Positions 3,895 to 61,183 of a stretch of DNA of 64,000 nucleotides are shown piece after piece. The position numbers and the translations under genes are program-made. Source of the DNA: Elusimicrobiaceae bacterium (GTDB lineage Bacteria > Elusimicrobiota > Elusimicrobia > Elusimicrobiales > Elusimicrobiaceae); NCBI GenBank assembly GCA_017528825.1, contig JAFXOI010000031.1, positions 26,033-90,032 on the forward strand, given 5' to 3'. The notes beneath the pieces are model-generated. The model was not told the origin of the DNA. It ran no database searches and was given only the letters and a program-made list of their open reading frames with translations. Each line of letters starts with the position of its first letter. Position 1 is the first letter of the stretch.

Positions 3895-5179
3895 AACACA
3901 TATTAGCGAATATTTGCAACTGATTTTACCTGCTTTAGGTGTTAATAAACAGCGGGAATTGGGGCGTTTGTTATACGAGATTAACAAACGAGATGCCTTG
4001 CCGTTGGCTGAGATATTACCTGCAGAAAAAAATTTAACTTTTGAACGCGCCAAAAACATACTATTACAAAAACGCTATCCGCTTTCCTATAAGACCGCTG
4101 CGAAAAACGCATTTTATTTGCCTAAATTGGAGTTTGACCCGGCCCAGCGGGCGGATTTGTCTGGGCGCCCTTTTTCTCCCAAGCAAATATACATAGAAGC
4201 CGCGGTGCAAGACAGCCCGTTGGCGCTTCGTGCCCGCCACATGTTTCCGCAGGCACAAGTGGAAATTTTACATGAAAAAAAGACAGTGGGCCAACCTTGC
4301 TTTTCTCGTCGTACAGAAACGCTTCTTATTCATCAGGAAAAATATGATTTCGTAAAGCCCTGTCCGTGCTCGCAAGGAAATGCGGGGTGTGGGTATAATT
4401 TGATTAATTTGGGATTTGGGTGCCGGTTTGAATGTGAATATTGTTTTTTACAGCAGTATCAAAATTTGCATGCTATTTTGTTGCCGGCCAATATAAACGA
4501 TTTTTTGGCAAAAATAGATCAAACCACTTGGCGCAAAGGACTTTTTGAACGACCGCGTATCGGTAGCGGAGAATTTACAGACTCATTAGTATTTGACGAA
4601 TTGACCCAATACACACAAGATATAGTGCCCTTTTTTCGGGCACGGCCGCATTTGCAATTTGAATTCAAAACCAAAAGCACTTGTATTGAAGGATTATTGC
4701 GGGCGGGCGGAGCTGAAAATGTGGTGGTGGGTTGGTCTGTAAATGCCCCGCAATTTATTGAAAATGTGGAACATTTAACGCCGGATTTAACCGCCCGTTT
4801 GCAGGCCGCTGCACAGGTGGCTCGTGCGGGATATCGTTTAGGTTTTCACTTTGATCCGGTGGTACCGTTTGAAGGATGGCAAACCGCCTACACCCAAGCG
4901 GCCGAGCAAATTGCCCGGTCGGTCCCGTTAGACAAGGTGGCATGGATCAGCGTGGGGATGTTGCGCTTTTCCCGCGAACTGAAAAAAGCGGTGGAAAATC
5001 GTTTCCCGGAAAATACGATTTTAGACGGTGAATTTTTATTAGATTTTGACGGAAAAATGCGTTATCCTGCCGTTTTAAGGCGAGAAGTATATGGTTATTT
5101 TGTGCCGCTTTTGCGCCGCCTTTTCCCTCACACGCAAGTCTATGTATGTATGGAAGCCCCTGAATTCTCCTTACACTAA
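3884..5179 (+). CDS. splB: Spore photoproduct lyase-family radical SAM protein
   Basis: CxxxCxxC (GCRFECEYCFLQ), GSGEFTDSL, FEFKTKS, WSVN, GFHFDP. GTG 3884 follows SD caggag; ORF track starts at 3860. Confidence 0.75.
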   Translation: MESETHISEYLQLILPALGVNKQRELGRLLYEINKRDALPLAEILPAEKNLTFERAKNILLQKRYPLSYKTAAKNAFYLPKLEFDPAQRADLSGRPFSPKQIYIEAAVQDSPLALRARHMFPQAQVEILHEKKTVGQPCFSRRTETLLIHQEKYDFVKPCPCSQGNAGCGYNLINLGFGCRFECEYCFLQQYQNLHAILLPANINDFLAKIDQTTWRKGLFERPRIGSGEFTDSLVFDELTQYTQDIVPFFRARPHLQFEFKTKSTCIEGLLRAGGAENVVVGWSVNAPQFIENVEHLTPDLTARLQAAAQVARAGYRLGFHFDPVVPFEGWQTAYTQAAEQIARSVPLDKVAWISVGMLRFSRELKKAVENRFPENTILDGEFLLDFDGKMRYPAVLRREVYGYFVPLLRRLFPHTQVYVCMEAPEFSLH

Positions 5180-5245
5180 CAAGATAACAAGTACTCTATT
5201 CTACATTTGGCATTTCCTACTTATGCTAAGAACAAATCGGCTTTA

Positions 5246-5347
5246 GAAGCGTAGTAAAAAAGAGACTGGAAACGGAGTAGTCTGTTTGATATGTATGAGC
5301 GAAAGGCGAGTTTATCAAACAGCGTTTGCAGTCTCTTTTTTTGCTTC
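5246..5347. other. Long imperfect inverted repeat (about 100 nt stem-loop), possible terminator or small RNA
   Basis: GAAGC/GCTTC, AAAAAAGAGACTG(5256-68)/CAGTCTCTTTTTT(5329-41), AAACG/CGTTT and CTGTTTGATA/TATCAAACAG stems. Confidence 0.7.
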
Positions 5348-5367
5348 TTTGCCGAGAGTCTTTTTGG

Positions 5368-5395
5368 ATACTTTTTCTTCGGAAAGAAAAAGTAT
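5368..5395. other. Perfect 12-bp hairpin upstream of pilin promoter
   Basis: ATACTTTTTCTT-cgga-AAGAAAAAGTAT. Confidence 0.7.
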
Positions 5396-5407
5396 TATAA
5401 AAAACAC

Positions 5408-5436
5408 TTGACATCGTTTTTTTTTTTTAGTATCAT
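5408..5436 (+). promoter_or_regulatory. Sigma70 promoter of pilin gene with T12 tract in spacer
   Basis: TTGACA 5408-13, 17-nt spacer containing T12 (5417-28), TATCAT 5431-36. SD AAAGGAGGT 5451-59. Confidence 0.85.
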
Positions 5437-5462
5437 TTAAAAAAATTATTAAAGGAGGTCGT

Positions 5463-5978
5463 ATGAAAAAAGGTTTTACCTTGATTGAGTTATTGGTGGT
5501 TGTTTTAATTATAGGCATTTTATCGGCCATTGCAATTCCCCAATATCAAGTATCGGTAGAAAAAACAAAAGCGGCCAATTTGCTCTCTTTGCTTGCTTCT
5601 GTCGCTCAGGCAGAAGAAGTGTATTATTTAGCGAATGGAAAATACACGGATCAAATGCACGATTTGGATGTACAAGTGGATTATGTACGTAATGAAAATA
5701 AATACGGTGGAGTAGTATATCAGCTACCAGAAGGGCATTGGTTCATGCTTGATTTTCATGCCTCTGTGGTGCGTGGGGGGACAGATTATGTACAGATAAA
5801 TCGTTACTTGAATTATTCTCCTCAAGAGAAAAAAGTAGTTTGTTATGCGTTAACAGGAACAATTGGAGAACCAGCGTGTAAAAGTTTGGGGGTTAAAAAT
5901 TGGACTGGAAGTCAAGGATGTGGAATGACTGGTACCGTTTTGGGAGAGAAAACTTGTCGGTATGGTAATATAGAGTAA
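5463..5978 (+). CDS. Type IV (PilE/PilA-like) prepilin
   Basis: Class III signal MKKG|FTLIELLVVVLIIGILSAIAIPQY and four C-terminal Cys. Confidence 0.92.
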   Translation: MKKGFTLIELLVVVLIIGILSAIAIPQYQVSVEKTKAANLLSLLASVAQAEEVYYLANGKYTDQMHDLDVQVDYVRNENKYGGVVYQLPEGHWFMLDFHASVVRGGTDYVQINRYLNYSPQEKKVVCYALTGTIGEPACKSLGVKNWTGSQGCGMTGTVLGEKTCRYGNIE

Positions 5979-6046
5979 AATGATATAAAATCGGTAGGGA
6001 GCAAAACTCCCTGTCCGAACGCGCGCATATTTAGTAGAATAGTACT

Positions 6047-6682
6047 ATGGAGTTGTTTCTCATTATACCGATTTTGTTTTTCTCCATTGTGCTACATGAA
6101 TTTGCGCATGGATATGTGGCCTACCGGATGGGTGATGATACCGCTTATCTGAGGGGTCGTTTAACGTTAAATCCGCTCAAACACATTGATTTGATCGGCA
6201 CGCTCTTGGTGCCGGCGATATGCTATGTTTCGGGTCTTCCTATGTTTGGCTGGGCCAAACCGGTGCCGGTCAATGCGCAACGTCTTCCTTTTCCGCGCCA
6301 AAGTATGGGCAAAGTGGGGCTGGCAGGTCCCACCGCTAATTTACTACTGGCGGTAGTGTTTGCTTTTTTGGCAAAACTCACTTTGGTAAGCGGCGTCCTT
6401 TCGGCACAAGGCACCGTGCAAACCGTACAGATTTTATTTTACGGCATACAAATCAACATTTTGTTGGCGGTATTTAATTTAATGCCGATTCCACCGTTAG
6501 ACGGAGGACATATTTTGGCGGCTTTGTTACCGTTGGACAAGGCATTGAAATACGCCCATTTTTTCGGCCGATACGGTATGTATATCGTGTTGGGGCTTAT
6601 TATAACGGGGATTTTTAAGTATATTATTTATCCGCCCATGTTTGTGATTGTGCGGGTGATTGGTAAAATTTTTGGACTGTGA
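6047..6682 (+). CDS. Site-2 protease (peptidase M50)
   Basis: HEFAH zinc motif, TLNPLKHID, AGPTAN, FNLMPIPPLDGG. Confidence 0.93.
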   Translation: MELFLIIPILFFSIVLHEFAHGYVAYRMGDDTAYLRGRLTLNPLKHIDLIGTLLVPAICYVSGLPMFGWAKPVPVNAQRLPFPRQSMGKVGLAGPTANLLLAVVFAFLAKLTLVSGVLSAQGTVQTVQILFYGIQINILLAVFNLMPIPPLDGGHILAALLPLDKALKYAHFFGRYGMYIVLGLIITGIFKYIIYPPMFVIVRVIGKIFGL

Positions 6683-40744: not shown

Positions 40745-41865
40745 AAACATTTTTACGTACCTGTCAGCACACCCTGCATAGCCGGCAAGCACAAATTTTG
40801 TTGCCGGCAGTAATGTTGGCGCCTATTTTCATTTTGGTTATTTACTTGTTATTTGAAACCTCCAAACTATCCATGACTAAGGTGCGCCAGCAATTCGCCT
40901 TGGACAATGCCGCCTATGCCCAGATGTCTACTGCCAGCACTTACTTAAATGCAACTGCGATGGTGAACGGGATTCCCTACCGCGTTATGCGAACGATGAG
41001 CCAAACGCTCAAACCAAAAAAAACTTCTGAGTTGAAAGGTAATTTTACTGTGTTTGATGTGTTTTACCGCGCAGGCGCATTTCTGTCTATTGGACCTAAC
41101 CATGCCGACCAAGCCATTTCAAACCCGATCCCGGCTGCTGCATCTACTAACTGGGATTTTCAGTATTACGGTGATAAGCGGAAAAACTGGATAAAGGAAG
41201 AACCTTCCGATGCCAACGAAGATATGGAAGAGAAAAAAGATGATGGTGGCAAATACTTAGTTTTAGCGGATAAAGAAATAGTCGACAATTATTTCTTTAC
41301 TTCTACCAACGGCGCCTTGGATAGGGTTAAAGATTATATAGTTATTTTTATTCGTACAGGTTCTATTTATGCTTCCCAGAATTATGCATACAAGGATACC
41401 ATTAAAAAGAGCCGTATGTTTCGCGAAGCAATCTTTCTAAACACGAAGGATTGTCGTAAATCAGAGTGCGGCCAGCAAGGGGCGGCTGTTCTAGACCGTT
41501 TTGAACTAAACACAGTTCCGTTTGAAATTGAAAGAGGCCGCTTTTATTTAACAGCAGACTATGTAGGGTCTACGGCCCATTCCGGTGCATATCCGCTTGA
41601 TTTGGATTTCAATAAAATTATTAAAACGAAATTATTTCAATTTGGCTATTTGGATGCCTCCAGCCGTTCCCGTTTGAAACAACTGGCCAGAGGCATCACG
41701 TTGAAACAAAAATATGTAGTGCCGGAGAACCGTTTTAATATCAATATCACTGCCCGCTACAAACCGTACGTAAAAAATACGGTATCGGTGACATGTCCAC
41801 GCAGCGGCAATAACTGCGTATGGCCCAATCCGTTGCCTAAATACAGTGTGAAGGTGGGCGTATGA
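40741..41865 (+). CDS. tadG: TadG-like pseudopilin
   Basis: RQA|QILLPAVMLAP hydrophobic start, RQQFALDNAAYA (Tad domain pattern), four Cys. Confidence 0.7.
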   Translation: MKTFLRTCQHTLHSRQAQILLPAVMLAPIFILVIYLLFETSKLSMTKVRQQFALDNAAYAQMSTASTYLNATAMVNGIPYRVMRTMSQTLKPKKTSELKGNFTVFDVFYRAGAFLSIGPNHADQAISNPIPAAASTNWDFQYYGDKRKNWIKEEPSDANEDMEEKKDDGGKYLVLADKEIVDNYFFTSTNGALDRVKDYIVIFIRTGSIYASQNYAYKDTIKKSRMFREAIFLNTKDCRKSECGQQGAAVLDRFELNTVPFEIERGRFYLTADYVGSTAHSGAYPLDLDFNKIIKTKLFQFGYLDASSRSRLKQLARGITLKQKYVVPENRFNINITARYKPYVKNTVSVTCPRSGNNCVWPNPLPKYSVKVGV

Positions 41866-42392
41866 GAAAATATAATTTTTCCCGCCACGGTCAAGCCACA
41901 ACCGAAACGGTTCTTCTGTTGCCGGTGATGGTTATTTTTATTCTATTTATTATCAAAATTTTTGGCCTCTTAGTTTTGACCCAAAAGATGGAAATTGCTG
42001 GTTTTTATGCGGCCCGTCGCTATCAGTTGCAGAGCCATACGGCGGATGTTTTAACTCGTTGGGACCGCCGTTTCTTACAAAAAGATATTAAAAAGAAAGT
42101 AGAAGAGTACCTTGGTTTTAATAACCCGGGGATGGTGCGTTTTTTGAGTTTGAAGAGCTTGAAATTGGATATCAATACCAAGGGTACTTGGACAAAGGTA
42201 ACTATGACCGTTTCCACGCGGCCGCCGCAAATTAAGTTTTTGTGTAATTACGATAAGTTGCAAATTTGCGAAAATGATATTTCCTGTTTGCACGGATATG
42301 CTTTCCTGTGCGAAACGGGGGGGCAAATCCAAATCATCAAATACGTCAGTCCTAATGAGCGGCCCTTGCCGTTTGTGCGACCGGAATCGTAG
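41862..42392 (+). CDS. tadE: TadE-like pseudopilin
   Basis: RHG|QATTETVLLLPV, AGFYAARR. Confidence 0.8.
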   Translation: MRKYNFSRHGQATTETVLLLPVMVIFILFIIKIFGLLVLTQKMEIAGFYAARRYQLQSHTADVLTRWDRRFLQKDIKKKVEEYLGFNNPGMVRFLSLKSLKLDINTKGTWTKVTMTVSTRPPQIKFLCNYDKLQICENDISCLHGYAFLCETGGQIQIIKYVSPNERPLPFVRPES

Positions 42393-60191: not shown

Positions 60192-60208
60192 TATTGTACA
60201 ATGTGTGT

Positions 60209-61183
60209 ATGAAGCAAATCCCCAACGTGCACGAATTAAAAAATATTTTGGTCTGCCGCGGCGAAGGATCCCTCGGGGATGCTATTGTGTCTTCGTGTTG
60301 TTACCGGGAAATTAAAAAGGCCAATCCGCACATTAAAATTACGGTAGCGTGTTTTGGCCCGTCCTATCCTTATTTTCAATATAATGCTTACGTAGATGAA
60401 GTGATTAAACTGCCGGTGCGCACCTTAATACGTCCCAATCAACGATGGATCTCTTTAATAGGGGCCGCTCTTAAATTACGTCGGAAACATTTTGATTTAG
60501 TATTAGATAGTTCGCGTAAAAAGTTTTGGAATTGGCGCCTGTTCAAATGGATTACAGGGGGGGATAAAGTGCTGGATTGTTTTACCAGTCCCGTGCAACC
60601 TTTTGGTGCCTTTGCCGAACACGCCAGCCAGCACGAGCAAGCCATCCTAAAATTACTTGGAATTGAGCATCCGGATGCCTCCTATGATTTGCCTGTTCCG
60701 CCGCAGACTCAATCTCAGGTAGATAGTTGGCTAACCGGTACTCATATTCAATCGTATATTTTGCTTAATCCGTCCGGTTCCATATCGGCGCGGCGTTTTT
60801 CCAAAGAAACTTTACATACCTTGGTAAAATCGTTAACAGAGTTAAACCGCCCTTTTGTAGTGCCGACTGTACCCGCCCAGCGGGCAATGTGGGTGGAAAT
60901 TTTTGCTGATTTGCCACAAGTGCACGTCAAGCAAACAGCGGATATTTTTGAATTATTCGAGCTGGTACGGCGGGCAGAATTGGTAGTTACGCCCGATACT
61001 TCCGTTGTGCATTTGGCGGCAGGATATCATCGCCCTACGCTGGGGGTTTACAATCGTTTCTCCAAATATAATGCCCCTCTCAACCCCAAAGCCGTGATTG
61101 TGCGTACCGCTCCCGAAACGGTGAATAAGTTTTCGTTGGAACAATTACAGCAAGCTGTGGAGCAAGTGAAAAAAATGTTATGA
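60209..61183 (+). CDS. Glycosyltransferase family 9 (heptosyltransferase-like)
   Basis: GSLGDAI, LRRKHFDLVLD, LLNPSGS, VVTPDTSVVHLAAG. Confidence 0.85.
   Translation: MKQIPNVHELKNILVCRGEGSLGDAIVSSCCYREIKKANPHIKITVACFGPSYPYFQYNAYVDEVIKLPVRTLIRPNQRWISLIGAALKLRRKHFDLVLDSSRKKFWNWRLFKWITGGDKVLDCFTSPVQPFGAFAEHASQHEQAILKLLGIEHPDASYDLPVPPQTQSQVDSWLTGTHIQSYILLNPSGSISARRFSKETLHTLVKSLTELNRPFVVPTVPAQRAMWVEIFADLPQVHVKQTADIFELFELVRRAELVVTPDTSVVHLAAGYHRPTLGVYNRFSKYNAPLNPKAVIVRTAPETVNKFSLEQLQQAVEQVKKML

Follow-up and report, generated by a model that had tools for sequence, protein, structure and literature searches.

We identified a predicted sigma-70-type promoter in which a run of twelve T residues (T12) forms the core of the spacer between the -35 and -10 boxes, directly in front of an orphan type IV pilin-like gene, within a 64,000-nucleotide stretch of DNA (hereafter the window) from a gut Elusimicrobiaceae MAG. 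The tract probably serves as an expression dial that is reset by slipped-strand mispairing, one such dial for each pilin paralogue, and graded tuning and ON/OFF switching are equally likely. We observed the promoter anatomy itself, the conservation of its layout over unrelated promoter sequences, its place in a multi-copy cassette, and length polymorphism of the tract on identical flanks. Within the species collection, the nearest public relative is a Candidatus Avelusimicrobium MAG, and its syntenic region shares 92.3% identity with the window.

The promoter region as read in the window is cacTTGACAtcgTTTTTTTTTTTTagTATCATttaaaaaaattattaaAGGAGGtcgtATG, which may also be written cacTTGACAtcg-T12-agTATCATttaaaaaaattattaaAGGAGGtcgtATG, and all of its elements lie on the forward strand. 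The -35 hexamer TTGACA (5408-5413) is followed by a 17-nt spacer, tcg-T12-ag (5414-5430), and by the -10 hexamer TATCAT (5431-5436). The T12 homopolymer itself, the putative hypermutable element, occupies 5417-5428; it was read directly, and length variants of it are known. Both hexamers were read directly and also recovered by a consensus scan of 4800-6300, in which this promoter, with 11 of 12 consensus positions, was the top promoter-like site and the only one on the forward strand 5' of the pilin gene. Promoter geometry predicts a transcription start site at 5443, 7 nt past the -10 box. A Shine-Dalgarno sequence, AGGAGG, was read directly at 5453-5458, and the gene begins at 5463. None of the RNA sequencing runs that we searched for the pilin gene region contained the gene.

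The gene (5463-5978, forward strand) encodes a protein of 171 aa with the N-terminus MKKG|FTLIELLVVVLIIGIL and a Cys-rich C-terminal domain. It has the features expected of a type IV pilin, including a short basic leader with a terminal Gly, Phe at +1 after the cleavage site (MKKG|F), Glu at +5 and a hydrophobic N-terminal helix. In addition, the protein matches the N_methyl family PF07963 with 32 bits (cut-off 21.2), and its N-terminus aligns with solved type IVa pilins (PilA and PilE structures). A preliminary description of this DNA, which had read TTGACA-tcg(T)12ag-TATCAT with a 17-nt spacer directly 5' of a type IV pilin, is thus borne out by the sequence, the consensus score and the PF07963 match. 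The gene is an orphan among housekeeping genes, with an SPL-like radical-SAM gene on one side and an M50 peptidase, TrpRS and ScpA/B on the other. We found more than 6,900 homologues of this pilin, nearly all of which carry the GFTLIELLVVVLIIGIL helix. At the syntenic site of a further relative (L004, 30-572), also located before the M50 peptidase, TrpRS and ScpA/B genes, the pilin is merely 56% identical to that of the window, with promoter remnants and a leader that are almost unchanged. This combination indicates a fast-evolving C-terminal domain joined to a homogenised cassette.

T12 is the only homopolymer of at least nine residues in the 64-kb window. An order-1 Markov model predicts 5.7 A/T runs of at least nine and 0.26 runs of at least twelve per 64 kb, against one observed run of at least nine. 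A single T12 is therefore not improbable by itself; long runs are depleted, and the sole one lies exactly within a promoter spacer. Chance is ruled out, since eight promoter sequence types have the same arrangement. The window also holds just two G/C runs of at least seven, at 60557-60563 (inside the ORF 60194-61183) and at 42317-42323, the latter being a short G7 run within the 3' portion of an ORF (41862-42392) for a Tad pilin-like protein.

DNA was fetched around six pilin homologues from many samples, and the eight promoter types that emerged share one layout 5' of orphan pilin-like genes: TTGAC(A/C/T), 0-5 nt, a pure tract of T9-T15, 1-2 nt, and TAnnnT. TTGAC abuts or closely precedes the tract in all eight types, and TAnnnT follows it by 1-2 nt in every one, yet the types are otherwise mutually unalignable in their flanks. 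Between the tract and the ATG there are anywhere from 34 to 86 nt, whereas the register of the tract to TTGAC and TAnnnT is fixed. Since the register is kept with the hexamers and not with the start codon, we argue that the hexamers are real -35 and -10 boxes, and the same pattern speaks against a role in the leader or in translation. In the type with the shortest tract, T9, five extra bases bring the spacer to 16 nt. Among the A/T runs of at least nine in the 349 kb fetched, a set in which many loci are one place sampled repeatedly, 40 of 43 are in the promoter-spacer position, and all are uninterrupted. These tracts, like T12 here, are thus uninterrupted repeats of a length capable of slippage, and on the predicted promoter they fall between the -35 and -10 boxes. 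The check proposed in the preliminary description, a search for similar architecture before other pilin genes, was therefore positive.

Of the eight distinct pilin loci that were examined first, six have the layout, and at least one further pilin class (MKQGFTLIELLIVMVIVGIL) is without it. Many of the spacers are 14-16 nt rather than 17 nt long, and those of some P0082 alleles are 11 nt, so a simple rule that 17 nt means ON does not fit every family. Several promoter types also carry a TGn extended -10 element (..TgaTAAACT). For the window allele itself, T12 gives the canonical 17-nt spacer, and the ON state that had been proposed for it is a fair prediction.

Tract length varies between samples at several of these loci, with a possible noise of about 1 nt from misassembly of homopolymers. 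At the P0041 locus (TTGACCcg-Tn-cgTACAAT), ten samples gave T11 three times, T12 four times, and T13, T14 and T15 once each. Six of these samples have no mismatches over 158 nt upstream and 578 nt downstream (736 nt), and in them the tract reads T11, T11, T11, T12, T13 and T14. The P0082 promoter (TTGACTc-Tn-gaTAAACT; nine samples) occurs with T12, with T11 and as TTGAC-T10, and the promoter of a neighbouring pilin (TTGACTcg-Tn-gaTACACT; two samples) with T11 and T12. In contrast, P0117 (TTGACTtgtta-T9-gaTAAAAT) showed T9 only in seven samples, and P0069 (TTGACTtg-T12-ggTACACT) T12 only in six samples, several of which come from one study.

At the window locus, T12 was found in the window, in an ENA contig (L003) and in an exact 81-nt Logan contig of run X2. 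T13 was found in run X5, where a 151-nt contig matches 5403-5552 with no mismatches and one extra T, so that T12 and T13 differ in length over a 150-nt exact match; X5 is a sample from another study and shares only 23% of k-mers. Run X1 holds a 44-nt T11 contig with exact flanks at a depth of 5.7 beside T12 at 9.24, figures that come from assembled contigs only and may include library stutter. The two depths sum to approximately that of the flanks (12.6-15.6), and X2, which holds the same strain as X1, lacks the T11 contig, indicating that T11 is not a fixed paralogue. Heterogeneity within one population is thus suggested by one small unitig pair in X1. The sister-species allele has T12 in the related MAG (L001) and T14 in run X10, and T12 is identical in two genomes with flanks that are merely 92% identical. 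Invariance among strains, which the preliminary description had named as the outcome that would count against it, was not what we found: the tract ranges over T11-T15 at P0041 and over T11, T12, T13 and T14 at the window locus and its orthologue. Its proposal of a phase-variation switch fares less uniformly, being favoured by the layout, the paralogues and the length differences between strains but not by P0117 and P0069, which are invariant over 6-7 samples.

We also found that the promoter belongs to a dispersed cassette. Copy number was gauged from the k-mer depth of assembled Logan contigs aligned to 4900-6100. Depth is 12.6-18 in the unique flanks and reaches 140-260 over 5351-5432. The cassette core, which comprises the palindrome described below, the promoter, the 5' leader and the conserved pilin N-terminus, spans approximately 5351-5514 on the forward strand at about 6-20 times the depth of the flanks. 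Run X2 contains about 6-11 genome-equivalents that share the palindrome, the -35 region and the -10 box with the leader, and run X1 contains 14-20 genome-equivalents that share parts of the cassette, a figure in which related strains may be included. The multiplicity of pilin paralogues that had been assumed for this promoter is therefore supported. Copies spanning the tract in X2 have T12 on contigs of 81 nt and 9,941 nt and T11 on a contig of 14,876 nt, and another copy has T12 with one base fewer 3' of the tract. In X2, a 2,399-nt contig also carries a copy with T8, exact flanks and a 13-nt spacer, while a degenerate copy in which T6 follows TTGCCAatta lies on a 45,336-nt contig; these two paralogous copies may be locked-low or decayed promoters.

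Long Logan contigs end at 5380 and restart at 5465, and the orthologue assemblies L004-L006 stop just 3' of the -10 box, a break in public assemblies that is the usual signature of a repeat. Since such cassettes break metagenome assemblies, pilin repertoires of MAGs are undercounted. A pattern scan of genome contigs returned two cassette copies only, both from one related MAG, as copies are probably collapsed or located at the ends of contigs. One of them (L001, TTGACAccg-T12-gTAGCAT) is the orthologue of the window's locus, and the other (L002, TTGACAtcg-T11-agTATCAT) is a paralogous copy at a contig end. Related cassettes are present, and the window's locus absent, in runs X6-X9, X11, X20, X23 and X24. 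A scan of JGI metagenomes for the palindrome together with TTGAC found none.

Comparison of the window (5429-5575) with its sister-species orthologue (L001, 6085-6245) reveals a mosaic. Identity is 99% in the intergenic cassette up to the last T, about 97% in the pilin body and 92% in the flanking genes, while the segment that begins at the -10 box and takes in the leader peptide and the N-terminal helix exists in a different version in each. The mosaic looks as if paralogous cassettes had undergone gene conversion, one breakpoint being the 3' end of the T tract.

Upstream of the promoter is a perfect 12-bp inverted repeat, ATACTTTTTCTT-cgga-AAGAAAAAGTAT (5368-5395, no strand assigned), which is unique in the window, where none is expected by chance. 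This AT-rich palindrome folds with -12.2 kcal/mol (z = -4.5), and it is conserved in both cassette copies of the related MAG and in the high-depth cassette copies. Its centre lies about 61.5 nt 5' of the predicted start site, and a position near -61.5 is that of a classic class I activator site. The palindrome is thus a candidate operator or activator site, as judged from its symmetry and position. In other cassette types, a GC-rich hairpin directly adjoins the -35 box instead, as in GGCCAGgctCTGGCC-TTGACT. Further upstream on the forward strand, a long nested hairpin followed by T7 (93 nt, 5253-5345) has a minimum free energy of -38.1 kcal/mol (z = -6.8). Its k-mer depth of 60-230, against 12.6 in the unique flanks, shows that it is repeated elsewhere in the metagenome. 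This hairpin probably acts as intrinsic terminator for the SPL-like radical-SAM gene upstream, and it is probably also a terminator module that travels with some cassettes; in the paralogous copy of the related MAG (L002), its place is taken by another, ordinary terminator. The T12 tract was itself considered as the U-tail of an intrinsic terminator and rejected, as a scan of 4800-6300 for a GC-rich hairpin 0-2 nt before a T run was empty, and the nearest hairpin, which is AT-rich, ends at 5395, 21 nt off. A known RNA family was likewise rejected, the Rfam scan of 4500-6500 giving sub-threshold chance matches only (snoR15 and MIR161).

Homopolymers of nine or more residues slip at high rates, and sigma-70 promoters have their highest activity at a spacing of 17 +/- 1 nt and lose it rapidly outside this range. 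The mechanism that we propose begins with T12 as the spacer of a sigma-70-type promoter, the hexamers of which are predicted to be active, within a dispersed cassette placed before stand-alone type IV pilin-like genes of Elusimicrobiaceae. Since the spacer consists of 9-15 T without interruption, slippage during replication would add or remove a T far more often than the flanks mutate. Each such change would move the -35 and -10 boxes closer together or further apart and, given the dependence of sigma-70 on spacer length, should alter transcription. T12, with its 17-nt spacer, is the predicted high state, T11 and T13 would be lower, and T8, with 13 nt, would be essentially off. Each paralogue would drift independently, leading to lineage-specific pilin repertoires, and switching may be fast enough to act within a population. 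Every pilin paralogue would thereby possess its own heritable, reversible and stochastic volume or on/off control.

More tentatively, and with less than even confidence in all of its elements jointly, we put forward genome-wide combinatorial surface variation by homogenised poly-T pilin cassettes in gut Elusimicrobiaceae. Some ten to dozens of orphan pilins scattered among housekeeping genes may each have one copy of a homogenised cassette, in which a palindromic operator near -61.5 precedes -35 and -10 boxes that are separated by a pure poly-T spacer. Gene conversion may keep the copies alike, with breakpoints at the T tract and at the conserved N-terminal helix, and the purity of the poly-T may be maintained by second-order selection for mutability. 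If this is true, each cell lineage would display its own pilin subset and dosage, a bet-hedge against IgA, phages and changing adhesion targets.

Several other explanations must be set against the slippage-driven dial. The tract might have a fixed structural role in a strong or regulated promoter, for example as rigid A-tract DNA or as a binding site for a nucleoid or regulatory protein, and be kept for its composition, with the length differences as a tolerated by-product of no regulatory role. It is pure T and most often twelve residues long across unrelated cassettes, two loci are invariant over 6-7 samples (P0117 at T9 and P0069 at T12), and the same length recurs in the two genomes that are 92% identical in their flanks, all of which would fit such an element. 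However, any change of length shifts the -35/-10 spacing, to which sigma-70 is sensitive, so T11-T15 cannot all be equivalent if this is a promoter, and alleles spanning 5 nt persist on identical backgrounds, which is unexpected under strict constraint. We regard a purely structural tract as unlikely, though it is the strongest of the competing explanations.

Considerably less probable is that the hexamers are not a promoter at all and that the tract is a U-rich leader element (for example a translation enhancer), a terminator tail, or the edge of a repeat or recombination unit. Hairpins do lie upstream, at 5368-5395 in the window and, as a GC hairpin adjoining TTGACT, in other families, and the breakpoint of the mosaic coincides with the 3' end of the tract. 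Nevertheless, the terminator scan found nothing, and the gap from hairpin to tract, 21 nt here and 7 nt in the P0082 type, is too long for an intrinsic terminator. The tract stands at fixed distances from TTGAC and TAnnnT but at 34-86 nt from the ATG, and the 34 nt from the tract to the ATG here leave no room for another downstream promoter. We would be most surprised if the tract and its apparent polymorphism proved to be a sequencing or assembly artefact. Illumina reads and assemblers are error-prone at runs of eleven or more, which lends this view some weight, as does a dip in depth at the T12 unitig in X2 (10.1 against 17). Yet separate assemblies and samples repeat T12, tract lengths of samples processed through the same assembly pipelines differ by up to 4 nt, which exceeds stutter, and the T9 and T12 loci are fully reproducible over 6-7 samples. 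The slipped-strand dial remains our preferred explanation.

Elusimicrobia are a deep-branching, almost uncultured phylum with dozens of pilin-like genes. The pilin promoter described here is most likely a promoter-spacer contingency locus of an already known kind, found in a new phylum and a new gene family and arranged as a multi-copy cassette. We found no description of a poly-T spacer design in the literature on Elusimicrobia pilins, phase variation and homopolymers. A mutational dial for each gene suggests that the pilins are variable surface structures under pressure from the host or from phages, and, if true, contingency-locus biology would extend from a few pathogens to a gut commensal phylum.

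The poly-A promoter tract of the vlp genes of Mycoplasma hyorhinis was reportedly described by Yogev in 1991 and by Citti and Wise in 1995. As in vlp, an A/T homopolymer separates the -35 and -10 boxes in the individual promoters of several paralogous surface-protein genes; there, slippage switches the genes independently to give combinatorial surfaces, and such switching is predicted here. Unlike vlp, which is one lipoprotein cluster, the genes here are type IV pilin-like, scattered among housekeeping genes, and belong to a diderm gut Elusimicrobia bacterium, and the tract is about T12 in a 16-17-nt spacer as opposed to about A17. The Vlp variable lipoprotein system is the subject of Rosengarten & Wise 1991 (PMC208157, as listed in PMC11868660).

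Homopolymer tracts in the promoter spacer are also found in Neisseria, in porA (poly-G) and in opc and fetA (poly-C). The resemblance lies in the homopolymer between the -35 and -10 boxes of a surface-protein gene, the length of which sets expression in Neisseria. The Neisseria loci, however, are single genes with G/C tracts in a pathogen, whereas a multi-copy homogenised cassette is found here. The Neisseria repertoire has been reviewed (PMC5953494; PMC5320596).

In Bordetella pertussis, fim2, fim3, fimX and fimN have a C-stretch in the promoter (PMC1891110; PMC10172299; Willems 1990, PMC551991, as cited in PMC1891110). Its length differs by strain, being 10-15 in fim2 and 13-18 in fim3, and alters transcript abundance in a graded manner (PMC1891110; PMC10172299). 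Both systems thus consist of paralogous pilus or fimbria subunit genes with a homopolymer of strain-variable length inside the promoter. In Bordetella the poly-C sets the distance from the BvgA activator site to the -10 box, whereas the poly-T here lies between canonical -35 and -10 boxes; by analogy, the palindrome near -61.5 could act in a role like that of the BvgA site.

A T-tract rheostat has been described for sabA of Helicobacter pylori, where tract length tunes adhesin transcription stepwise via slipped-strand mispairing (PMC4081817). Here, too, a poly-T tract is found at the promoter of a surface gene, and tuning is predicted. The sabA tract, however, adjoins the -35 box upstream and acts via DNA geometry, not via the -35/-10 spacing as proposed here. 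Closer to sabA than the window's promoter is the locus of P0063, a pilin-like protein of 241 aa encoded downstream of a T2SSE ATPase, which has A13 in one contig (L042, 3921-3933) and at least A12 in another (L043, 1-12). This A run is about 23 nt 5' of an extended -10 element, tTGcTATAAT, that is, at or upstream of the -35 position.
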